DNA of 64,000 nucleotides from an uncultured Clostridia bacterium (GTDB lineage: Bacteria > Bacillota > Limnochordia > Darwinibacteriales > DTU012), in assembly GCA_900019385.1 (NCBI GenBank), contig FIZJ01000003.1:42744-106743 (forward strand), in the 5' to 3' direction. Shown here piece by piece: positions 3,998 through 49,498 of the stretch; the stretch's first letter is position 1; every line of letters starts with the position of its first letter. Both the position numbers and the translations under genes were made by a program. The notes beneath the pieces were generated by a model. It had not been told where the DNA came from, made no database searches, and was given only the letters and a program-made list of their open reading frames with translations.

Positions 3998-4267
3998 TTA
4001 TTCTAAATCCAGCCTGCGGACGATATCCTCATAATCCTGTGCCTTGGCCAAATCGACAATGATCAGGTCCCGGCCGATCTTCTTGATACCCTGCCAGGGA
4101 ATGACGATTATTCTCTTGTGAAACCAGCTTCTGCCGTAGGGAATGATGATCGAATCCACCATTCCAGATTCGGTGTTGATAATCAAGTCAGTATCATTGA
4201 CAACACCCAAGCGAATGCCCTCTTCAAAACAGACGATCTCCTTGCCGGCCAAGTCAGAATACCGCAC
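3998..4267 (-). CDS. ymxH: YlmC/YmxH-family sporulation protein (PRC-barrel)
   Basis: ...SDLAGKEIVCFEEGIRLGVVNDTDLIINTESG... is typical of YlmC/YmxH; start codon uncertain (GTG at 4267 or TTG at 4282). Confidence 0.7.
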   Translation of the reverse strand: MRYSDLAGKEIVCFEEGIRLGVVNDTDLIINTESGMVDSIIIPYGRSWFHKRIIVIPWQGIKKIGRDLIIVDLAKAQDYEDIVRRLDLE

Positions 4268-4444
4268 ACCAACCAGCTCCAAATCATCAAGACTCTGCGC
4301 ACTGCTATTCTATGCAGCCCATGCATTATGATGAACCATCCAGCAATCGCCTTGACACCCATGTTTTGCTCTTTGTGCTGTGGCTGCTGCCTGTGCTACT
4401 ATACTGATAGCTGTTATTATCAACATCCAGAGAGGAGGGCGCCT

Positions 4445-5506
4445 GTGAATCAGAATATTTTGATCCCCGTACTCACACTGCTGTTTTACCTGACTTCCGT
4501 CCTCGGGGGCGGCCAAGCCCCTCTGGATCCGAGCCTTGCGCCGCAAACGCCGTCAAGGCTGCACGACAAATCAGTGTTGGGCTATTATGTCATGGATTCT
4601 GCTTCATACAACAGTTTGATTCAAAACAGCAATCATCTCACGGGAGTTGCTCCATGGAGCTGGGGCTTGGATAGCTACGGGAACCTTAACGCTGATTTTG
4701 ACCCGGAGATGCTGGGACAAGTGCTGAAATTCGCCGGCACTCGCAAGATTGAGACTTATGCCTTGATCCACAACATGTTCAACGGCCGCTTTGACCAAAG
4801 AGTCGTCAAAGCGCTGCTGGACAGCGAGATCGCCCGGGCCAGAGCCATAAGCCAAATCCGATCGGCAGCGGCCGAGTGGGGGCTGACCGGTATAAATCTG
4901 GATCTGGAAAGTGTTCCCCCGTCACACCGGCAGGCTCTCACCGATTTTGTCGCCGAACTCAGCAGCGCGCTGAGGGAGGATGGTGTCAAAGTCACCATGG
5001 CTGTTCCCGCCAAGACCGCGGATAATCCACAGCACGGCCATTCCGGCGCCTATGATTACCAAGGACTGGGCAAGCATGTCGATCAATTAGTGATCATGGC
5101 CTACGACCAGCACTACCGCACCGGCCCCGCCGGCCCGGTCGCCGCGGCCGACTGGGTGGAAGCGGTGGTAAAGTACGCTGTCAGCCAGGTTCCAGCCGGC
5201 AAAATAGTGCTGGGCATACCCAACTACGGCTACGACTGGCCGCAAGCCGGGACCGCAAATGCCCTGACCTATGAGCAAACCATGCAGCTGGCAGCCCGGG
5301 AAGGGGCAAGCCTCAAATGGCACAACCAGTACAAAGTCCCCTATTTCACCTACGGCAGCGGCCGTCAGGTATGGTTTGAAAACCGCTACAGCATCAAATA
5401 CAAGCTGGAACTGGTAAAACAGTACAACCTGAACGGCATTGCCCTTTGGCGCCTTGGGCAAGAAGACCCGGGCATTTGGAATGTGATAAACAATACCTTT
5501 TCTTGA
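4445..5506 (+). CDS. secreted glycoside hydrolase family 18 (YaaH/YdhD catalytic-domain-like, no LysM)
   Basis: GH18 motif GINLDLE; signal peptide VNQNILIPVLTLLFYLTSVLGGGQA; GTG start with AGGAGGG RBS; an upstream in-frame extension overlaps ymxH and is rejected. Confidence 0.8.
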   Translation: MNQNILIPVLTLLFYLTSVLGGGQAPLDPSLAPQTPSRLHDKSVLGYYVMDSASYNSLIQNSNHLTGVAPWSWGLDSYGNLNADFDPEMLGQVLKFAGTRKIETYALIHNMFNGRFDQRVVKALLDSEIARARAISQIRSAAAEWGLTGINLDLESVPPSHRQALTDFVAELSSALREDGVKVTMAVPAKTADNPQHGHSGAYDYQGLGKHVDQLVIMAYDQHYRTGPAGPVAAADWVEAVVKYAVSQVPAGKIVLGIPNYGYDWPQAGTANALTYEQTMQLAAREGASLKWHNQYKVPYFTYGSGRQVWFENRYSIKYKLELVKQYNLNGIALWRLGQEDPGIWNVINNTFS

Positions 5507-19010: not shown

Positions 19011-20879
19011 TCAGCTCCTGCCGTACTCCAGATGAGCATTGAGGTGCTGCCGCACCGCCAGAGCGATCTTCTCCGGCGTCAGCCCGTACAGGTCATGCAG
19101 TTCGGCAATTCTCCCCTGGGGTATGAACTGATCCGGGTAACCAATCACGACTACCCGCTTGCTTCCTGCCGCTGCATAGAATTTCGCTACTGAACTGCCA
19201 AAACCTCCCGCAGCCACATTGTCCTCCAATGTGAAGACCAAGTCTGTTCCGTCGGTCAATTCATCTAAAACAGCGCCGTGAAGCGGTTTCAACTGACGCA
19301 TGTTCACCACTCTGCACGAGATTTCCGGCCTTAACAGCTCCGCAGCTTCAGCAGCCGCATATGTCAGAGGGCCTACAGCCAAAATCGTGCAGTCGCCGCC
19401 CTCAACCAGGATCTCGCCGGCAAGGGCCTGGGCCGGATCAAAATCAAGGTCTGAGCCAACGCAAGTTTCGCTGCGCGGATAGCGGATTGCCACCGGGTGG
19501 TTCTGGGCCAGGGCCCACCTGAGCATGGCTTGGAGTTCGGAACCACTGCGCGGCGCTAAAATGATCAGGTTGGGGATATGGCTTAGGTAACTTAAATCAA
19601 ACACACCGTGGTGGGTAGGGCCATCTTCGCCTACCACACCGGCGCGGTCCACTGCGAGCACCACAGGCAGATCCTGCAGACAGATGTCATGCAGAATCTG
19701 GTCATAGCCTCGCTGCAGGAATGTGGAATAGATGGCAGCCACAGGGCGCATGCCGCTGACAGCCATTCCGGCGGCGAAAGTCAAGGCATGCTGCTCGGCA
19801 ATCCCTACATCGAAGAAGCGTTCAGGAAACGCCTTGGCAAATTCCGTCAAACCCGTTCCATCGGGCATGGCGGCTGTAATGGCCACAATGCGCGGGTCTG
19901 CTTTGGCAAGTTCCACCAACGTTTTGCCAAAGACAGCGCTGAAACTGAGGGGCTGTCTTGTTTGATCCGGACCTGAACCGGCAAAGTTCGGCCCCAATCC
20001 GTGGTATTGGACAGGGTCCTGCTCCGCTGGAGTGAAGCCCTTGCCTTTTTGCGTCACAGCATGGATTAACACCGGCCCGCCTCTCTTGATGCCGTCCCTC
20101 AGCGCCCGCTGAAGCAGCCTGATGTTGTGCCCGTCAAAGGGGCCGAAATAGGCAAACCCGAGCTCCTCGAAGAGCTGGCCGGGGAGCAGGCTCTTCACCG
20201 CATCCTTCAGCGACGAACCTAACCGGCTCACGGACCCACCGATGGCCGGTATCTTCTTAATAAGGCTTTCCAGTTCTGCTCTGGCTTTGTATAAGGTTGG
20301 ATCCAGGCGGATCTTGTTCAAGTAGTTGCTCAATGCCCCCACATTCTTGGAAATGGACATGGCGTTGTCGTTCAAAATAACGACCAGATCCACCCCCAGC
20401 TGGCCGGCGTGATTGAGTGCTTCGAAGGCCATACCTCCGGTCAGGGCTCCGTCGCCGATCACCGCCGCCACCCTGAAGTCTTCCTGGTTCAAATCCCTGG
20501 CTATGGCAATTCCCAAAGCGGCGGAGATGGAGGTGGAACTGTGGCCGGCGCGGAAAACATCATGAGAGCTTTCTTCGGGCACAGGAAATCCAGAAATCCC
20601 GCCGAACTGCCGCAGTGTCTCGAAGTTGTGGTACCGGTTGGTTAGAAGTTTGTGAGGGTAACACTGATGCCCCACGTCCCAGATGATTTTATCCCTTGGG
20701 CTGTCCAGCACCGAATGGAGAGCAATAGTCAATTCCACCACACCCAGGTTTGCCCCCAGATGGCCTCCGGTTTTTGTCACCGTGGCGATGATCTTGTCGC
20801 GGATTTCCTGGGCCAGGGCTGTCAGCTGATTATAATCTAACTTATGCAAATCTTGTGGAGATTGAATTGACTCCAGCAA
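19011..20879 (-). CDS. dxs: 1-deoxy-D-xylulose-5-phosphate synthase
   Basis: ...GHLGANLGVVELTIALH..., GDGALTGGMAFEALN TPP motif; 622 aa. Confidence 0.93.
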   Translation of the reverse strand: MLESIQSPQDLHKLDYNQLTALAQEIRDKIIATVTKTGGHLGANLGVVELTIALHSVLDSPRDKIIWDVGHQCYPHKLLTNRYHNFETLRQFGGISGFPVPEESSHDVFRAGHSSTSISAALGIAIARDLNQEDFRVAAVIGDGALTGGMAFEALNHAGQLGVDLVVILNDNAMSISKNVGALSNYLNKIRLDPTLYKARAELESLIKKIPAIGGSVSRLGSSLKDAVKSLLPGQLFEELGFAYFGPFDGHNIRLLQRALRDGIKRGGPVLIHAVTQKGKGFTPAEQDPVQYHGLGPNFAGSGPDQTRQPLSFSAVFGKTLVELAKADPRIVAITAAMPDGTGLTEFAKAFPERFFDVGIAEQHALTFAAGMAVSGMRPVAAIYSTFLQRGYDQILHDICLQDLPVVLAVDRAGVVGEDGPTHHGVFDLSYLSHIPNLIILAPRSGSELQAMLRWALAQNHPVAIRYPRSETCVGSDLDFDPAQALAGEILVEGGDCTILAVGPLTYAAAEAAELLRPEISCRVVNMRQLKPLHGAVLDELTDGTDLVFTLEDNVAAGGFGSSVAKFYAAAGSKRVVVIGYPDQFIPQGRIAELHDLYGLTPEKIALAVRQHLNAHLEYGRS

Positions 20880-21469: not shown

Positions 21470-21494
21470 CTAAAACCTTTCCCATGATATGTAA

Positions 21495-22105
21495 TAATAA
21501 AAAGTGAATGACAGTGAATTGAGTAAAGATTGTGGCTTAGGTCCAGCAGGTTTTCCCAAAGATCCTCCGGCCCGTCGCCGCAGCCGGCGGTTTCCCCTTT
21601 CCGATCTTTTTGCCATGTCGCCATTGGCAAGGCTGGATTACCACTTAGTCCACACCGTAATCCTCAATCCACCTTCGTGAATACGAAACAGTCTAGGAGT
21701 TTTCCTCGACACCAATCGGCCATCTCTAGCCTCTTTTGCAGTACGGGTTTCAAGCCATGGACGCCTTGGCCTTTGGCATCCATATAGAAAGCCGCTATCC
21801 CCCCAATACCGCTCAAGGCAGGCTACTCTATACCCAGCACAAGGTTCGTATAGAGCTATGTTCGCGTACCGAGTATAGGTTCACTCCTAAGCCATAGCAG
21901 TACAGTCTCCCGTACCACCACACACTTAGGTCTCCGTGATAAAAGGGTCAATACCTACATGCCGTTGTAGATTGCCCTCTTATCTTAACCCCCAGCAGCA
22001 ACCCCCGACTGGGCGTCAAAGGCCACCACCAGAGACTTCATCGATGTGCCCTCAACGGATTTTTAGGCCCGTCTTCGAGATGAGATTGGTGACTAGAATA
22101 CTGCG
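21495..22105 (-). ncRNA. candidate OLE (ornate, large, extremophilic) RNA, ~610 nt
   Basis: 690-bp gap with no credible ORF in any frame between ispA and oapA/dxs; dedicated sigma-A promoter upstream; ~25-nt imperfect inverted repeat pairs the 5' end (GUAAAUGAAUAAAAGUGAAUGAC) with the 3' end (GUCAUUCACUUUUUAUUAUUACAU); many internal helices; ispA-[RNA]-oapA-dxs-tlyA-nadK-argR-recN synteny matches published OLE loci. Confidence 0.6.
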
Positions 22106-22150
22106 TCATTCACTTTTATTCATTTACATTATACCAGAACTTCGCCGGTT
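22106..22150 (-). promoter_or_regulatory. sigma-A promoter with extended -10 (TTGATG-17-TGgTATAAT) driving the OLE-like RNA
   Basis: Minus strand: TTGATGaaccggcgaagttcTGgTATAATgtaaatG. Confidence 0.55.
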
Positions 22151-22159
22151 CATCAATTG

Positions 22160-23035
22160 CTACGATTCCCGGTTCTGAACGTACTCAGCCAGTTCAGCCA
22201 GATAATTCTGGCTTGGGAGCCGCCTTGCGTAACGTATGCACTGTTCGACACATTTAACCGCTTTTTTCTGCGCATCCTCCAAACCGAGCAGGGTAACATA
22301 CGTGGTTTTGCCCTGTCGGGCATCAGCGCCTGTAACCTTGCCCAATTTGGCCATATCACCGGCAACATCCAGGATATCATCTGTGATTTGAAATGCCAAG
22401 CCGAGGTTTTCTCCATACAAGGTGATTGCTGACAGTTCTTCGTCATTGGCTCCACCGATCAGGGCGCCACCCCGCAGTGCCGCCAGAAACAGCTTGCCTG
22501 TCTTGTGCCGGTGGATGTATTCCAGAGTCAGTTCATCCACCTCATGCCCTTCGGACTGCAGATCCACGGCTTGTCCGCCCACCAACCCCTGGGAACCACA
22601 GGCTGCCGCCACTTCCTGGATCAAGCGCACAACCAGGCCGCTGTCAAGCGCCATTCGGCTTAAAGTCTCGAAAGCATAAGTCAGCAGGGCATCACCGGCC
22701 AAAATGGCAATCCCTTCTCCAAAAACTTTGTGGTTGGCGAGTTTGCCGCGGCGGTAATCGTCATTGTCCATCGCCGGCAAATCATCATGAACCAACGAAT
22801 AGGCATGAATCATCTCAACGGCACAGGCAAAATCCAAAGCCTGGCTCCCGTCGCCGCCTACAGCCCGGCATGCTTCCACAGCCAGGATCGCCCGCAGCCG
22901 CTTGCCTCCTCCCAGGCATGAATAGCGCATCGCCCGGTGGATCACATCCGGCATGACGGCGGCGTCGGGCAGCAGCTGATTAAGCCTCTCCTCCACCTGT
23001 TTGGCTTGCTCTTTGATATACGCACCGAGATCCAT
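22160..23035 (-). CDS. ispA: farnesyl/geranyl diphosphate synthase (polyprenyl synthetase)
   Basis: First and second aspartate-rich motifs (LVHDDLPAMDNDDYRRG; ITDDILD). Confidence 0.9.
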   Translation of the reverse strand: MDLGAYIKEQAKQVEERLNQLLPDAAVMPDVIHRAMRYSCLGGGKRLRAILAVEACRAVGGDGSQALDFACAVEMIHAYSLVHDDLPAMDNDDYRRGKLANHKVFGEGIAILAGDALLTYAFETLSRMALDSGLVVRLIQEVAAACGSQGLVGGQAVDLQSEGHEVDELTLEYIHRHKTGKLFLAALRGGALIGGANDEELSAITLYGENLGLAFQITDDILDVAGDMAKLGKVTGADARQGKTTYVTLLGLEDAQKKAVKCVEQCIRYARRLPSQNYLAELAEYVQNRES

Positions 23036-24482: not shown

Positions 24483-24548
24483 GCGATCCCTCCTTTGAAT
24501 TAAGTTCTCTTTGAATGAGGGAATACCTTCTCGCGCCGACATATGAAA

Positions 24549-24570
24549 CAAGCCGGGGTTCCCGGCTTGT
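24549..24570 (-). terminator. intrinsic-terminator-like hairpin directly after the micro-ORF stop
   Basis: AAGCCGGGaacCCCGGCTTguuucau on the minus strand. Confidence 0.45.
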
Positions 24571-24729
24571 TCACGGCATCTGACACTTCTTTCGCCGCAT
24601 TCTGTTGATCACAATATCGGTCAAAGCGCCCAAGGCCATTCCCAGGAGAACCCAGGCAGCATAGCCAGGAGCCACCCAATGCCCCACAATCAGGCCTAGT
24701 GCAGCGCCAATTACGAGCTTGACCCACAT
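24571..24729 (-). CDS. 52-aa hydrophobic micro-protein (two predicted TM helices), not in the provided ORF track (below its length cutoff)
   Basis: ATG with excellent SD (AAAGGAGGGGGcgcagATG); MWVKLVIGAALGLIVGHWVAPGYAAWVLLGMALGALTDIVINRMRRKKCQMP; stop followed by the hairpin. Confidence 0.45.
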   Translation of the reverse strand: MWVKLVIGAALGLIVGHWVAPGYAAWVLLGMALGALTDIVINRMRRKKCQMP

Positions 24730-24760
24730 CTGCGCCCCCTCCTTTGGTACACACTATTCT

Positions 24761-42152: not shown

Positions 42153-45100
42153 TCACTGATCGACTTCCAATCTATACAAGTGTGTATAGTGACTCCAGTA
42201 CAGATCCTTCAACCCCTGATCGAGTTTGCTGTAATCTGTCTCCAGGTTAAACTCCTCACGCTTGCGGGCGATTTCTTCGTTAATCTTGCGGTTGTACTCC
42301 AATATCGATTCCCGCAGAGGTTCATTCCTGAAAACAATCGCCCGGAACAACCAATCGAATTGACGGTTGACATAGTACCCGCCCAGTACCGCCGGGACAC
42401 CTTCGACCCACGCCCACTGCTCCAGGAGCAGATCCCGGTCGTGTACATTCCAAGGCAGCTGTGTCAAGGCTTCGACATTGGCGGTGGCGTAGCGGGCTGC
42501 CGCCCCCATCAAGCTCTCCATTTCGCGCCCAAAGCGTGCCTGAGTCTCGGTTGAGGTCCACCACTTCAGGAACTCCCAAGCCCAATCCTTTTTCTTGGAT
42601 ATCTCGAGAATAACCGCTCCCGAAGTACCGGCAGGCACTGCCGTGGCACCGGGGGCCACCGCAGTACCGGCGACAGGCACAGTGCGGTTGATGGTGCCAT
42701 CTTCCATCACTGTCCCCGGCACCAGGGTCATGCCCCATTCACCCCTAAGCTCCGGCGCAAACACCGCCAAGGTGTTGTAAAGGCCGTAGTTGGCGATCAA
42801 CAAGGGCATTTCACCCATACGGAACCTGTTGGCCTCATTATACTCATACAGCAGGTTGTGCAGAGTATACAGCTGCGTCAACTCTCTGAATGTCTCCACT
42901 GCAACCTCGGCATCGAGGTTGGTCATGATCACGTCTTCCTTGAACAAGGGGACTCCCTTTTGATAGAGGAACATCTGGTAAGTGCCTATGTTGGCTCTCA
43001 GGCCGAATTCCATATTCTCTTTCTTCAATTCGGGAATGATGGCTACGACATCATCCCATGTCTGGGGCACCTCAAGGCCCAACTCAGCCAAAATGTCTTT
43101 CCGGTAGAACAGCATCGGGAAGCCCTGTGCTTCAGGCAGAGCGTAAACCGCGTCTCTGAACCGGAACGGTACAAATGCACTCTTCATAAACCGCTGTGCT
43201 ACTTCTTCAAAGTCCGGGAATTGAGACAAATCAGCGAAAGCGCCGCGGAACGCCAGGTCCATGTTGGATGCTCCCAGAGCCACATCGGGAGCAGTCCCCG
43301 CAATGATCGAAGGGATCAAAAGCGCATCCATGCTCTGGATCAATTCCAGGTCCACCGGAATGCCGGTCATTGGTGTGAAGCTGTCCTCGATCATTTGCTT
43401 GAGAGCCTGCGCCTGGTCGCGCCCAGCACCGATCCATACCCTCAAAACCTCGTCGGTGTCGGTGATCAATCCCCGATCACCTACACGGGTGTAATCATAG
43501 GTGAACGAAGCCAAGAAAGCTCTGATTTCATGCACCCAGGTCTGAAGCGCTGTCGGCTTCGGCCTCGGCAGTGCCTGCTCCGGTGATGCCACAATGATGT
43601 AGTCTATCTGAACCGGCTGTTCCATGGTCTGGTTAAGCCAAGTTCCCAAGGCGCCCACATTGTCGCGGTACTCGCCCAGCAAGCTTGGAATCGCATGAGG
43701 CCTGTCGGCCATGTCTTCCAACACTCTGGCGAATGTGGTGAGCGTGGCGACGTGCCCACCCCTCTGCCCTGTAAAGGACTCAAACTCCTCGGCGACACTC
43801 CGCAGTATTTCCGCCTGCTCCCTCAAGGCAGGAAGCAAGCCTGGGATTTTCACATCGAGCTGATAGCTCCGGAGTGGATCCGGCTGGCCGGAGGTGATCA
43901 TGATGATCCGGCGGTAGATCGTGTTCAAGTCATAGATCAGGTCTTCGATCTTGCGGATCAGCGGAGCCATATCGCCCAAGACAGCTTTGAGAGTGAGCTC
44001 ATGTTTGCCCGCCTCCAGGTAGACCAGGGCAGGCTTGCCCTCCTCGTCGACAGGATAGACCATGTTGTAGTGGTTGTCAAAAGTGAATCTCAGGGCCTGT
44101 GCTTCCCTGAACGGTGTTTTGCCGTCGATCAGCAGCTGGCGCGATGTGTAAATCCCGCGGCGCTGATCCTGCTTACCCTTGATGGCTATCTGGTACAGCC
44201 CGCTCTCTGGCACTTCGAACTCCCAGGAAGCCCAATCCCCTACAGTCTTCCACCCAGTGCCGCCAATACTGTTGAGGCGGATCTGAGCCGGATGGTATGG
44301 TTCAAGGGTGGGATCTCCCAGGTCGTGTACGGGCATGATGGTCGGGCTTGAACGATATGCCGCTGCTTCGCCCTGAATCTTTTCGAACACTCCCGACGCC
44401 TGCTTGTACCCGGCCTCCTCGTAGGCTGCTCTCACCTCGGCGTACAGCGGCGGCACCTCATACTGGAACAATCTCAGCGAATTGATGATCACAGCTTCGG
44501 AGACTGCCTCTAGTCTAATGGTATTAGTTCCTTCTTCGAAATAAAACAAAAACGGCAGAACCTCATAGCCCGAGGGATCGCTTAAAACCTCTGTGCGCCA
44601 ACGAGGTTTCTCCACCTGCCGGGGCCTGAGCTGATTCCCATATATGTCCACTTCGATCGGGCCTGCGTCGCCCCATGTCCGGTGGAGGATCAGGTATCCT
44701 GCTTCGGCGAAAGGCCTGGAGCCGTTTATTTCCAGAGCCCTTTGAATCGGTGCGCTGCGCCCGGTCACGGGGTAATAAGTAACTTCAATATTATAAAAAC
44801 CTGCTTGTTCAACCTCCACTTCCCATTCAACAAATCCCCGCTCGCCTGTCTGGACCGATATGCCGGGCATCCCTTCGTAATCATAGAGCAGTTTTATTTC
44901 AGCATCCAGATTGGAAAGAGACACTGCCGGGATCACAATTTCCCGTTCCGGCCTGACTATTGTCTCATACTTCGCCAGGTATTCGGGATAGGTGATGGCG
45001 CGTCGATAAACCGTGAGCTGTTCCACAGCTGAGCCGGTAATGCTGTTGCTGTCCGGTGTCTCCGGTTCTGCTGACGCCTCTGCTGCTGCCTGTGGAGCAT

Positions 45101-45209
45101 TGTCGGCCTGCGCCTCGACCAGCTGCGGCAGAGTCGTGGCCAACGCCAGGGCCAAGGCGAGAAGCAGAGTGGTAAGAATAGCAGCTTTTCTGTTTCCAAT
45201 TTCCCACAT
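42153..45209 (-). CDS. giant extracellular solute-binding protein (family 1 sugar-binding domain plus two N-terminal carbohydrate-binding-module-like repeats), SPase-I signal peptide
   Basis: C-terminal ~470 aa is a family-1 sugar solute-binding fold; two repeated ~170-aa β-sandwich-like domains (GFVEWEVEVEQAGFYNIEV... / GDWASWEFEVPESGLYQIAI...); signal ...LPQLVEAQA with no lipobox Cys. Confidence 0.8.
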   Translation of the reverse strand: MWEIGNRKAAILTTLLLALALALATTLPQLVEAQADNAPQAAAEASAEPETPDSNSITGSAVEQLTVYRRAITYPEYLAKYETIVRPEREIVIPAVSLSNLDAEIKLLYDYEGMPGISVQTGERGFVEWEVEVEQAGFYNIEVTYYPVTGRSAPIQRALEINGSRPFAEAGYLILHRTWGDAGPIEVDIYGNQLRPRQVEKPRWRTEVLSDPSGYEVLPFLFYFEEGTNTIRLEAVSEAVIINSLRLFQYEVPPLYAEVRAAYEEAGYKQASGVFEKIQGEAAAYRSSPTIMPVHDLGDPTLEPYHPAQIRLNSIGGTGWKTVGDWASWEFEVPESGLYQIAIKGKQDQRRGIYTSRQLLIDGKTPFREAQALRFTFDNHYNMVYPVDEEGKPALVYLEAGKHELTLKAVLGDMAPLIRKIEDLIYDLNTIYRRIIMITSGQPDPLRSYQLDVKIPGLLPALREQAEILRSVAEEFESFTGQRGGHVATLTTFARVLEDMADRPHAIPSLLGEYRDNVGALGTWLNQTMEQPVQIDYIIVASPEQALPRPKPTALQTWVHEIRAFLASFTYDYTRVGDRGLITDTDEVLRVWIGAGRDQAQALKQMIEDSFTPMTGIPVDLELIQSMDALLIPSIIAGTAPDVALGASNMDLAFRGAFADLSQFPDFEEVAQRFMKSAFVPFRFRDAVYALPEAQGFPMLFYRKDILAELGLEVPQTWDDVVAIIPELKKENMEFGLRANIGTYQMFLYQKGVPLFKEDVIMTNLDAEVAVETFRELTQLYTLHNLLYEYNEANRFRMGEMPLLIANYGLYNTLAVFAPELRGEWGMTLVPGTVMEDGTINRTVPVAGTAVAPGATAVPAGTSGAVILEISKKKDWAWEFLKWWTSTETQARFGREMESLMGAAARYATANVEALTQLPWNVHDRDLLLEQWAWVEGVPAVLGGYYVNRQFDWLFRAIVFRNEPLRESILEYNRKINEEIARKREEFNLETDYSKLDQGLKDLYWSHYTHLYRLEVDQ

Positions 45210-45440
45210 TTTCGAGATAGTCTCCTTTCTCATCTCTCATCCCAGAAAAACTTATTCAAGCCCGATAAACCCCAAGGATTGATTGAACGTGGATTATTGA
45301 ACCTCCTTTGCCCACGTTTCCGTACCATTATCACGATTAATATCCCTGCAATATATAATTAACCATTGATCCCGATTTCCCTTCCCGTAGACACAACTTT
45401 TTTACCGCATCAACAAGGCGCAATTAGACACAAGACAGCA

Positions 45441-46428: not shown

Positions 46429-47493
46429 ATGGATGTCAAAGAAATACTGGCCAACCTGTCGGAAGGCACCGGAGTTTCCGGCTACGAACACGGCATAGCA
46501 GATTATCTGGAGCAAAACTGCCCGTGGGCTGACGAGATCCGCCGGGACAAACTGGGCAATCTGATCATGGTGAAGCGGGCCAGGCCTGCCGCGGAGCAGC
46601 CCAGCAGGCCTAAGGTAATGCTGGCCGCCCATATGGACGAAATTGGGCTTATTGTCACCAAAATCGAAGATGAAGGTTTTCTGCGCTTCAGCGCTGTCGG
46701 CGGCATCGACCAGAGGGTGCTGCTGGCCCAGGAAGTCATAGTCCACGGCAAAGCTGAACTTCCAGGTGTGATCGGGGCCAAGCCGCCCCATGTACAGGCT
46801 CCTGCGGAACGAAACGAGGCTGTGCCCATGGAAGATCTGTACATTGACGTCGGATATGACTCCAAGGAACAGCTGGCTGATCTGGTCAACGTCGGGGACC
46901 TGGCGACGATCAACCGCAAAGTGGTGAGGCTGGCCGGATCGCTCATGGCCGGCAAAGCAATGGATGACCGCGCCGGCGTCGCGGTGATGCTGGAATGCCT
47001 CAAGGCACTGGCCAACATGAACCATATCGCCGATGTCTACGCTGTTGCCACCGTCCAGGAGGAAGTAGGCGTAAGGGGTGCCACCACCAGCACATTCGGC
47101 ATCGTTCCCGACATCGGCATCGCTCTCGATGTTGGCCACGGCGACATGCCCAGCGTACCGGAGCACCTGACGATCAGTCTGGGCAACGGGCCCGGAATCG
47201 CCCTTGGGCCGCATGTCCATCCCAACCTGCACAAGCGTTTGGTCCAGATCGCCAAAGATTGGAACATCAGCTACACTCTGGAACCGGCCACACGCCCCGG
47301 CGGGACTGACGCTTTCGCAATTCAGATCACTCAAGCGGGTATTCCTACTGCCTTGTTGTCCATACCTTTAAGATACATGCACACACCTGTTGAGACACTG
47401 AACTACGAAGATGTACGCAAAACTGCCCGTTTGCTGGCTCAATTCATTTCAGAACTCGATCAGGAATTCGTGGAGGGATTAAAGTGCTTTTAA
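46429..47493 (+). CDS. M42 family (TET/FrvX-like) aminopeptidase, paralog 1
   Basis: HMDEIG, DDRAG, QEEVG motifs. Confidence 0.9.
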   Translation: MDVKEILANLSEGTGVSGYEHGIADYLEQNCPWADEIRRDKLGNLIMVKRARPAAEQPSRPKVMLAAHMDEIGLIVTKIEDEGFLRFSAVGGIDQRVLLAQEVIVHGKAELPGVIGAKPPHVQAPAERNEAVPMEDLYIDVGYDSKEQLADLVNVGDLATINRKVVRLAGSLMAGKAMDDRAGVAVMLECLKALANMNHIADVYAVATVQEEVGVRGATTSTFGIVPDIGIALDVGHGDMPSVPEHLTISLGNGPGIALGPHVHPNLHKRLVQIAKDWNISYTLEPATRPGGTDAFAIQITQAGIPTALLSIPLRYMHTPVETLNYEDVRKTARLLAQFISELDQEFVEGLKCF

Positions 47494-48506
47494 AGCGACT
47501 GACTGAGGCCTGCGGCGGGCCGGGCCAGGAAGATGAGGTCCGGAATCTGATCCGGGGCGAAGTGAAAGATCTGGTTGATCAAGTCACCACCGATGCCTTG
47601 GGCAACCTAATCACCGTCAAGAACGGCACCAAGGCCGGCCCAAAGGTGATGATCGCCGCTCACATGGATGAAGTGGCCTTGATGATCATGAGTATTGAAA
47701 AGTCTGGCCTGCTCAAGTTCAATCCTATTGGAGGGATTGATCCCAGGGTACTGGTGGCCAAGACAGTAGTGGTCGGCAAAAACCGTGTCCCTGGTGTAAT
47801 CGGCTCCAAACCGATTCATCTGCAAAGGCCAGAAGAACGGAAGAAACCTCTCGCCATAGAAGAGCTGTATATCGATATCGGCGCTTCCAAAAAAGATGAA
47901 GCGGAACGGATGGTCAACATCGGTGATCTGGCCTATTTCACAACCGAGTTTGCCGCGATCGGCCCTGACAAGTTCAAAGGCAAAGCCTTGGATGACCGGG
48001 TGGGCTGCGCCATGCTGATCGACATACTCAAAGACACATATCAATTCCCGCTGTATGGAGCCTTTACAGTGCAGGAGGAAGTGGGCCTGCGCGGTGCCGG
48101 CACTGCCGCATACCAGGTCCAGCCTGATCTCGCCTTGGTGCTGGAAGGAACCACCGCATCAGATGTACCCGAAACTCCCAAACACCAGCATGCCACTAGT
48201 GTTGGCAAAGGCCCTTGCCTGACAGTCATGGACAGTTCCGTGATACCTGATCCCCGGTTGGTGGCAAAGCTGATGCAGCTGGCACAGCAGCACAACATCC
48301 CGGTTCAATACAGGCGCAGCACAAGCGGCGGCACCGATGCCGGCAAAATCCAGCAAAGCCGTGCCGGAGTGCCTGTCGCAGTCATCGCCCTGCCGTGCCG
48401 CTACATTCACTCGCCTGCGGCAATCGCCAGCCAAACCGACTATGATCATGCTGTTAAACTTGTGAAGGTGTTCCTGCGCAGTCTGGAAGAAGAAGGAGGA
48501 TTCTAA
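47484..48506 (+). CDS. M42 family aminopeptidase, paralog 2
   Basis: HMDEVA, DDRVG, QEEVG. Confidence 0.9.
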   Translation: MLLKRLTEACGGPGQEDEVRNLIRGEVKDLVDQVTTDALGNLITVKNGTKAGPKVMIAAHMDEVALMIMSIEKSGLLKFNPIGGIDPRVLVAKTVVVGKNRVPGVIGSKPIHLQRPEERKKPLAIEELYIDIGASKKDEAERMVNIGDLAYFTTEFAAIGPDKFKGKALDDRVGCAMLIDILKDTYQFPLYGAFTVQEEVGLRGAGTAAYQVQPDLALVLEGTTASDVPETPKHQHATSVGKGPCLTVMDSSVIPDPRLVAKLMQLAQQHNIPVQYRRSTSGGTDAGKIQQSRAGVPVAVIALPCRYIHSPAAIASQTDYDHAVKLVKVFLRSLEEEGGF

Positions 48507-48508
48507 CT

Positions 48509-49498
48509 ATGAAAAACCTGATTAAGGACCTCGTGGAAAGCTACGGCCCAACCGGTTTTGAGACTGAAGTAACCAACAAGATCCGCACATATATTGCTGA
48601 CAAAGTCGACGAATGTTATGTGGACGCCCTCGGCAATCTTATTGCCCGCAAAAAGGGCAGCGGCAAGAAAGTGATGTTTTCTGCCCATGCCGATGAAATC
48701 GGAGTCATTGTCACCTATATAGACGACGATGGATTCTTGCGGTTCAGCAATGTTGGCGGGCTGAACCTCCTCACTCTCCTCGGCGGCCGAGTCCGTTTCG
48801 CCAACGGTGTGATTGGTGTCATCGGCAAGGAAAAAGGCGAGCTGAAGGATCTCACCCTTGACAAGCTTTTTATCGACATCGGCGCCGCTACCAAAGACGA
48901 AGCCCAGAAAAAGGTCTCCATCGGTGATTTCGCAGTTTTCCACCGGGAATTCGCCGATTTGGGGCAGCGCCTGGTGGCCAAAAGCATGGATGACCGCATC
49001 GGCTGCGCAGTCTTGGTCGAGGCCATCCGCAGGCTGGATCATTCTGATCACGACCTCTACTTTGTTTTCAGCGCGCAGGAGGAGGTCGGGCTTCGGGGCG
49101 CCCGCACCGCGGCCTACAGCATCGACCCGGATCTGGGGATCGCAATCGATGTGACTAGGACTGGCGACACCCCGGAAGCTCCCCGCATGGATGTAAGCCT
49201 GGGCAAGGGTGCCGCCATCAAAGTGAAGGATTCCTCGGTGATCGCCCATCCCAAAGTGAAGAACCTCATGGTCCGGCTGGCCGAGGCCGATCAAATCAAG
49301 TACCAACTTGAGGTCTTGGAAGCTGGGGGAACCGACGCCGGCGCCATCCACCTCACAAAATCAGGTGTCCCGTCCGGCACCATCTCAATCCCCTGCCGCT
49401 ATGTGCACAGCCCGTCGGAAATGGTGGACCTGGACGATGTGGAAAACTGTGTGAAGTTGATTCTGGCCATCTGCCGCGATTCCCTCGATGAATTCTAG
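48509..49498 (+). CDS. M42 family aminopeptidase, paralog 3
   Basis: HADEIG, DDRIG, QEEVG. Confidence 0.9.
   Translation: MKNLIKDLVESYGPTGFETEVTNKIRTYIADKVDECYVDALGNLIARKKGSGKKVMFSAHADEIGVIVTYIDDDGFLRFSNVGGLNLLTLLGGRVRFANGVIGVIGKEKGELKDLTLDKLFIDIGAATKDEAQKKVSIGDFAVFHREFADLGQRLVAKSMDDRIGCAVLVEAIRRLDHSDHDLYFVFSAQEEVGLRGARTAAYSIDPDLGIAIDVTRTGDTPEAPRMDVSLGKGAAIKVKDSSVIAHPKVKNLMVRLAEADQIKYQLEVLEAGGTDAGAIHLTKSGVPSGTISIPCRYVHSPSEMVDLDDVENCVKLILAICRDSLDEF

Follow-up and report, generated by a model that had tools for sequence, protein, structure and literature searches.

The 64,000-nt stretch of DNA analyzed here (from contig FIZJ01000003.1 of an uncultured Clostridia bacterium; hereafter the window) almost certainly holds a functional, full-length gene for OLE (ornate, large, extremophilic) RNA followed by oapA, the gene for the OLE partner protein OapA. 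Both lie on the minus strand. The RNA gene is housed in a gap of 690–691 nt between ispA and an open reading frame (ORF) of 188 amino acids (aa). The original prediction, made from the letters of the stretch, had marked this gap as a candidate OLE locus and named a search with Rfam family RF01071 as the check. Run with cmscan, that search returned a match of 634 nt spanning model positions 1–616 of 616, with a score of 495.5 bits (E 1.4e-143) as compared with a gathering threshold of 50, and RF01071 was the only Rfam family detected in the window. As an ordinary, full-length representative of an established family, the locus is of a kind already known; about 2,800 representatives of OLE are on record (PMC11332333).

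Structure and conservation of the OLE RNA

When the structure of the Rfam model is mapped to the window, 147 of its 153 pairs are standard. The minimum free energy (MFE) of the RNA is −250.7 kcal/mol, versus −199.2 ± 6.3 kcal/mol for dinucleotide shuffles (z = −8.1), and the MFE fold, calculated without comparative input, recovers P1, P2, P3, P4, P7, P8, P9, P10, P11 and the 3′ domain. Helix names used here and below were assigned by inference from the text of PMC12265935.

Related loci were collected by way of the downstream gene. The 188-aa protein and 26 homologues (set A1) were used to fetch 80 genomic loci, and nhmmer, with the window OLE as query, detected a same-strand OLE sequence directly upstream of the OapA homologue in 76. 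A contig end truncates three of the four loci left. The remaining one (L010, from Firmicutes bacterium UBA5435; match at 4001–4549) carries an OapA homologue with 47% identity and lacks an OLE in the 4 kb to each side, whether searched with nhmmer or with the Rfam model. This homologue may be a paralogue, or its ole gene may be unlinked.

Seventy-five OLE sequences were then available in one alignment (A2), on which pairs were counted for the Rfam structure together with four helices that Rfam leaves unpaired. Of all cells in these 24 helices (188 pairs), 87.6% are paired, while sliding the partners by 1–3 columns leaves 38–46% paired, a comparison made on a MAFFT-based alignment and with a structure from a model fitted to the window, the latter favoring the unslid register. 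Changes on both sides occur in 148 of the 188 pairs, and none of 500 shuffles reached any of the pairing measures. Covariation is found in the interior helices too, in agreement with the original prediction of an interior rich in helices. The highly conserved nucleotides, about 25% of positions in OLE, are retained: among its 74 relatives, 242 columns reach at least 90% conservation, and the window carries the majority base in 232 of these and differs in 10, several of these differences being paired double changes (e.g. positions 20/615 and 250/296).

Two local peculiarities were seen in A2. G at OLE position 153 (21973) and C at position 173 (21953), the bases of at least 90% of relatives, are replaced in the window by A and U, a double change suggestive of one more pair, absent from the Rfam structure, in the internal loop of P6. 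A Symbiobacteriaceae metagenome-assembled genome (MAG; locus L059) has an insertion of ~41 nt right after P5 (A2 columns 147–187) that is unique among the 75 sequences and holds the self-complementary stretch CAGCCGACGGCUG (GAAACC...GGUUUC).

The two ends of the RNA are complementary. A terminal inverted repeat of ~25 nt had been predicted; the repeat is present, with a length of 20 nt and 85% complementarity (21493–21512 with 22105–22124). It forms P1, of which the inner 7–9 pairs covary across relatives, the inner 7 being 95–100% paired with GC/AU/UA/CG exchanges, and which has a window-specific A/U-rich extension out to position 2. P2 pairs positions 23–33 with 430–437, and its U29-A434 pair is replaced by C-G in 22 sequences. 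P3 (35–42 with 409–416) and P3.1 (44–49 with 400–405) contribute 8 + 6 = 14 bp in the window, P3.1 being 93.5% paired in A2 with double changes in five of its six pairs. The 3′ partners of P2 and P3/P3.1 lie at 21689–21696 and 21710–21726. As a by-product of the analysis, P1, P2 and P3/P3.1, which are left out of the Rfam structure, have clear covariation support.

Motifs known from the study of other OLE RNAs could be located in the window (Table 1). The A-rich loop of P4 is a dimerization contact (PMC12265935, PMC12286853), and kissing loops of P5.1 and P6.1 have a role in the OLE dimer (PMC12265935); the GCC (GCCC) of the P5.1 loop is complementary to the GGC of the P6.1 loop, and both are invariant columns in A2. 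The palindromic loop of P9 forms a symmetric kissing loop in the dimer (PMC12286853). In MFE-based folds, 67 of the 75 relatives carry a palindromic tetranucleotide in the loop of P9 (GGCC in 60, UGCA in 3, AGCU in 2 and GCGC in 1; A2 columns ~492–506), and this switching reproduces the published covariation of the intermolecular symmetric kissing loop. P9 is far shorter (57–63 nt) and free of a palindrome in loci L079, L022 and L045. The dimer motifs of P4, P5.1/P6.1 and P9 are all in the window, and its RNA is predicted to dimerize.

Sites for two proteins can be placed as well. OapC binds the kink-turn (k-turn) at the base of P5 (PMC9723947, PMC12286853); in the window the C-G pair beside the bulge is kept, the adjoining pair is U-A in place of U-G, and the k-turn is a predicted OapC site. 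A GNRA tetraloop and a single-nt bulge in P13 are the binding determinants of OapB (PMC7936274), and both are found in the window. Full-length OLE is marked by P7, P8 and a long P9. OLE variant 1 (TANB77) and variant 2 (RF39) have the conserved core in common with it, but they are defined by the shortening or loss of P7, P8 and P9, and the OapB site in P13 is often gone (PMC11332333). Since P7, P8 and a 91-nt P9 are all there, the window OLE is of the full-length type and is neither variant 1 nor variant 2.

Table 1. Features of the OLE locus and its immediate neighbors, in window positions
Feature	Position	Strand	Remarks
OLE RNA gene, full length	21492..22125	-	Rfam RF01071
ole promoter, sigma-A type	22128..22156	-	−35 box TTGATG (22156-22151), 17-nt spacer, extended −10 box TGgTATAAT (22136-22128)
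P1, 5′ strand	22105..22124	-	core 22113-22105 = OLE positions 13-21; inverted repeat, covariation, MFE
P1, 3′ strand	21493..21512	-	core 21512-21504 = OLE positions 614-622; inverted repeat, covariation, MFE
P2 + P3/P3.1, 5′ strands	22077..22103	-	P2 positions 23-33, P3/P3.1 positions 35-49; long-range, not in Rfam structure
P4 hairpin	22054..22073	-	A-rich loop CCUAAAAAU at 22067-22059, invariant across relatives
k-turn, 5′ half in J4a/5	22036..22045	-	AUCGAUGAAG, exact consensus match; 3′ partner GUUAAGA at 21990-21983
P5/P5.1 + P6/P6.1	21938..22035	-	loops ACGCCCAGU (22016-22008) and CAACGGCAUG (21967-21958)
P7	21930-21886 (positions 196-240)	-	model, covariation, MFE
P8	21878-21828 (positions 248-298)	-	25-nt apical loop, 23 nt over model
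P9 arm, 91 nt	21729..21819 (positions 307-397)	-	apical loop AAAGGCCAA (21774-21766) with palindrome GGCC
3′ domain	21513..21707	-	P10 (21707-21697), P11 (21688-21674), P12-P15 multi-helix; helices 17-24 are 84-100% paired
P13	21630-21610	-	UUGCC-A-AUG[GCGA]CAU-GGCAA; GNRA loop and 1-nt bulge
P14.1	21588-21567	-	GCGA loop
UACAUA hexamer	21488..21493	-	candidate MazF/EndoA or 3′-end processing site; straddles 3′ end of Rfam match, right after P1
oapA, 188 aa	20903..21469	-	ATG 22 nt past end of Rfam match
dxs, downstream neighbor	19011..20879	-	23 nt past oapA stop
ispA (farnesyl diphosphate synthase), upstream neighbor	22160..23035	-	stop codon 4 nt ahead of ole −35 box

Promoter, partner protein and rival explanations

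The near-consensus sigma-A promoter that the original prediction had noted on the minus strand is there, with 10 of 12 consensus matches in addition to the extended −10 box. A single site of this kind does not exceed what chance gives in the region (2.0 sites in shuffles). Across the family, sites with a score of at least 10 stand just 5′ of P1 in 62 of the 74 related loci, versus 4 of 370 background windows, and in those loci the −10 box ends ~19–23 nt before OLE position 20. The position of the extended −10 box (TGnTATAAT) is kept across Bacilli, Clostridia and the clade of the window, with a variable −35 box. The ole promoter is real and its position is conserved, across classes, which is a further by-product of the comparison. 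It corresponds to the proximal OLE promoter of Halalkalibacterium (Bacillus) halodurans, which is active there, with 5′ ends close to where P1 begins (PMC3413148). Transcription would start at ~22121 (about OLE position 5), as implied by the spacing from the −10 box. A start near 22103, put forward in the original prediction, lies ~18 nt away and has to be given up; it would cost P1 its 5′ strand.

The 188-aa ORF downstream is OapA. The features that define this protein are four transmembrane (TM) helices, a DxxxD motif and a basic cytoplasmic tail (PMC11332333, PMC12265935), and the small protein with four TM helices that had been proposed as OapA shows hydrophobic segments at about residues 8–30, 33–57, 98–120 and 125–147, a DxxxD motif at D97-VVG-D101 (DVVGD) with both Asp residues invariant in 27 homologues, and 8 K/R among its final 25 residues. 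In all, 577 homologues were found, and no Pfam or NCBIfam model recognizes the protein. The AlphaFold2 model is all-helical, with a mean predicted local distance difference test (pLDDT) score of 81.7. When this model was searched against the PDB with Foldseek, the top four matches were to MtCorB (7m1t/7m1u; E 7.6e-3 to 5.5e-2, prob 1.00, TM-score for the query 0.46–0.51) and the next matches had E above 0.6. MtCorB, an archaeal CNNM protein, is the top structural match reported for H. halodurans OapA too. A sequence resembling a ribosome-binding site (RBS), GGGAAAGG, is located ahead of oapA at 21483–21476.

Several observations weigh against the assignment of the locus as a functional OLE RNA gene with its partner. 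In addition to the register of A2, discussed above, six pairs of the model are non-standard in the window, P9 is short by 7 model positions, and the loop of P8 exceeds the model by 23 nt, although lengths at these places vary throughout the family. The fold match between OapA and CorB is modest (E 8e-3, TM-score about 0.5), and PF01595 (CNNM) gave no match to OapA even at E 10. Neither oapB nor oapC was found among the ORFs of the 64-kb window that were scanned, 17 ORFs at 1–5.5 kb and 49.5–64 kb being outside the scan, and L7Ae and KOW domains were absent from the four family-less small ORFs scanned.

Three other explanations of the gap were considered. The region could be nothing but a long cis-acting 5′ leader of the oapA-dxs-tlyA operon, similar to a riboswitch or attenuator, and not a stable RNA acting in trans. 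In the window, ole and oapA are not separated by an intrinsic terminator, and the spacers are short, with 22 nt before the ATG of oapA and 23 nt separating oapA from dxs, so OLE is the physical leader of any read-through transcript. However, OLE of B. halodurans is a single RNA of ~600 nt, very stable and abundant (PMC3413148), the structure far exceeds known leaders in size and conservation, and P1 joins both ends as in a discrete RNA. Among the 75 relatives, moreover, 19 have a terminator-like hairpin between OLE and oapA. That the region is a leader only is, in our estimation, very improbable.

Still less credence is due to a decaying, non-functional OLE remnant, to which the six non-standard pairs and the length differences in P8 and P9 might point. 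The match is full-length, departures from conserved columns are largely compensatory, the conserved promoter and oapA with its invariant residues are intact, and the sequence is identical in six samples. A gap coding for one or more small proteins is about as hard to believe. The original prediction had held that the gap contains no plausible ORF; five of the six assembly annotations do leave it empty, but mechanical ORFs of 48–85 aa are present on both strands, including 21530–21787 (+, 85 aa) and 21936–22178 (+, 80 aa), and one assembly has a gene call of 52 aa that overlaps the start of oapA. Substitutions track base pairs and not codons, however, and the variable regions have indels of many lengths. 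All three explanations run counter to the conserved structure and the compensatory changes, and to the promoter and partner gene being intact; even added together they are left with only a slight share of the probability.

The UACAUA hexamer at the 3′ boundary

Directly beyond P1 the window has the hexamer UACAUA. The 5-mer UACAU came out on top of an unbiased count; 38 of 75 loci have it 0–13 nt past the P1 3′ strand, and in 32 of these it is followed by A. The 25-nt bin after P1 contains 40 UACAU, which amounts to 21 per kb as compared with about 0.5–1 per kb elsewhere, and inside OLE the 5-mer is depleted about two-fold (15 observed, 32.6 expected). Exact TACATA occurs in 32 of 75 loci versus 0.54% of background windows (binomial p about 3e-52), and in a second sample of 117 distinct metagenomic OLE 3′ ends there are 14 TACATA in one 10-nt bin at the expected distance (p about 6e-21), with both p-values overstating independence, as the sequences within each sample are phylogenetically related. 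The reverse complement of TACATA is not enriched after P1. UACAUA is kept in relatives L001 (491–496), L002 (3968–3973) and L203 while the adjoining bases differ, and it is also found in many of L003–L206. Culturable OLE hosts that carry it past P1 include Halobacillus, Salimicrobium and Rossellomorea (L029, L044, L076). Enriched in the second, independent sample too, the boundary motif is therefore real; it is lineage-restricted and found in about 15–43% of loci, depending on the sample. It is the only item described here that may be unreported.

U^ACAUA is the strict cleavage sequence of Bacillus subtilis MazF (also NdoA or EndoA), and the specificity is reported to be conserved in Bacillota, in which 80% of species encode MazF (bioRxiv 10.64898/2026.08.06.743204). 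Like the sites of this enzyme in mRNA, the hexamer of the OLE locus has the exact sequence, is on the transcribed strand and lies in a stretch after P1 that is predicted to be mostly single-stranded in the primary transcript; unlike them, it is a candidate site known from sequence, in a fraction of the sampled loci. No mazF gene was found among the scanned ORFs of the window, with the same 17 ORFs outside the scan. MazF, or another factor that recognizes the hexamer, might cut the ole-oapA co-transcript right after P1, though we consider this rather unlikely. A cut after the U at 21493 would set the 3′ end of OLE and make the stable RNA independent of the oapA-dxs mRNA, and loci without the motif would more often end OLE by a terminator hairpin. 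Terminator-like hairpins after P1 were found in 14 of 37 loci without UACAU and in 5 of 38 with it (Fisher p = 0.018), a split that would fit two alternative ways of ending OLE. No paper linking OLE RNA with MazF, EndoA or NdoA was found in the searchable literature.

The terminator-like hairpins, with their U-tracts, are located 15–90 nt past P1, for instance in L016, L043, L006, L072, L048, L034 and L060; the window has none. Other roles for the sequence after P1 were tried and rejected. P1 and a following U-tract could act as a long-range intrinsic terminator, and the window does have UUUUU, but UUUU is found in only 13 of 75 relatives, and the mean U content after P1 is 0.39, which is ordinary for AT-rich spacers and counts against such a terminator as a feature of the family. 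Pairing of UACAU with the 5′ flank, lengthening P1 in the style of an rRNA processing stalk, was considered as well. The clade of the window fits this pairing (AUGUAA with UUACAU), but ATGTA stands upstream in only 9 of 75 loci, and both motifs are combined in only 5. As a promoter element of oapA, UACAUA was rejected by inspection, there being no T at position 6 of the −10 box; the bases 3′ of CATA are also unlike the −10 patterns of sigma-K and sigma-E. The best −10-like hexamer, TATCAT, was rejected as an oapA promoter because the start would fall inside the RBS.

Neighborhood, related systems and a working model

Read in the direction of ole transcription, the genes around the locus are xseA, xseB, ispA, [OLE], oapA, dxs, tlyA, nadK, argR, recN, spoIVB and spo0A, so the order ispA-[gap]-small protein-dxs-tlyA-nadK-argR-recN is as the original prediction had claimed. 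Beyond xseA are a TsaD-like gene, nusB, two genes of the Asp23 family, accC and accB (the latter two named from their translations only) and the spoIIIA operon. OLE hosts are Bacillota, as a rule anaerobic, extremophilic or spore-forming, and the host of the window fits this picture, with spo0A, spoIVB and the spoIIIA operon in the window, Bacillota MAGs as nearest genomes and anaerobic-digester metagenomes among its samples.

The 691 intergenic nt are identical across six independent assemblies (ENA, JGI, NCBI), and the ole region is thus no assembly artifact. Among public assemblies, 509 indexed blocks contain the exact OapA sequence, some of them from anaerobic-digester metagenomes and from GCA_041936265.1; its carrier is a widespread organism. 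The closest species-level genomes are the Bacillota MAGs AS08sgBPME_46 (88% OapA identity) and AS21ysBPME_219 (85%), and the closest named relatives of the host are Limnochordia MAGs; its class-level placement is inferred.

Three further observations concern other parts of the window. A small hydrophobic ORF at 24500–24754 (-), of 84 aa from a GTG or 52 aa from an ATG, separates xseA from the TsaD-like gene; it matches no family and may be spurious. The gene at 42153–45233 (-) encodes a protein of 1026 aa, of which the C-terminal 400 aa are a bacterial solute-binding domain (SBP_bac_1) and the first ~600 aa have no Pfam match, and it adjoins two ABC permease genes. Three paralogues of M42 glutamyl-aminopeptidase are found in tandem at 46429–49498 (+).

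Compared with OLE of H. halodurans and Clostridium acetobutylicum, the window RNA is alike in length, in P1–P15, in the conserved nucleotides, in the dimer loops, P13 and k-turn, and in its surroundings, namely a proximal sigma-A promoter just before P1, oapA downstream, and ispA, dxs, tlyA, nadK, argR and recN nearby (PMC12265935, PMC3413148). It differs in that the host is an uncultured member of the Bacillota from anaerobic digesters and in details of the helices: P1 is drawn out by A-U pairs to 20 bp, P3 + P3.1 have 14 bp as compared with a typical 12, the P8 loop and P9 have the departures in length given above, and the C-helix of the k-turn has a U-A pair where H. halodurans has a U-G wobble. 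The protein resembles known OapA in its length of ~190 aa, four predicted TM helices, DxxxD motif, basic tail, CNNM/CorB-like fold and gene position right after ole (PMC11332333), yet it has only 40–50% identity with OapA of Bacillaceae. The best PDB match to its model is the transmembrane domain fold of the CNNM Mg2+ transporters MpfA/CorB (PDB 7M1T, 7M1U). Unlike these, OapA lacks CBS and CorC domains and a PF01595 match, and has a fourth TM helix and the DxxxD motif (PMC11332333). The likeness is one of fold and not of membership in the CNNM family.

A working model can be drawn up from the sequence of the locus and from what is known of its homologues. RNA polymerase with sigma-A would start at ~22121, from a promoter squeezed into the 34 nt past ispA. 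The RNA of ~620 nt would fold into ~25 helices, with P1 closing both ends and with P2 and P3/P3.1 joining the 5′ domain (P4–P9) to the 3′ domain (P10–P15). Because a terminator is absent before oapA, some transcripts probably extend into oapA-dxs. By homology with the OLE RNAs of H. halodurans and Clostridium, two RNAs would dimerize via the A-rich loops of P4, the loops of P5.1/P6.1 and the GGCC loop of P9. OapB would sit on the GNRA loop and bulge of P13 and OapC on the k-turn at the base of P5, while an OapA dimer would tether the complex to, or through, the membrane. Recent cryo-electron microscopy work reportedly indicates that OLE may span the membrane. The particle would make the cell more tolerant of alcohol, cold, Mg2+ stress and poor carbon sources, as its homologues do (PMC3413148, PMC12265935).

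Few bacterial RNAs of unexplained biochemical function are as large and as well conserved as OLE; to our knowledge, its biochemical activity is not known for any species. One more ordinary OLE adds little to this, other than to extend the catalogue to a common, uncultured lineage of anaerobic digesters near the Limnochordia. The hexamer at the 3′ boundary may have more to offer. If it were a real MazF site, it would provide a testable handle on the maturation of OLE and a link to stress signaling, and would tie together two stress-response systems that are unconnected in the searchable literature.

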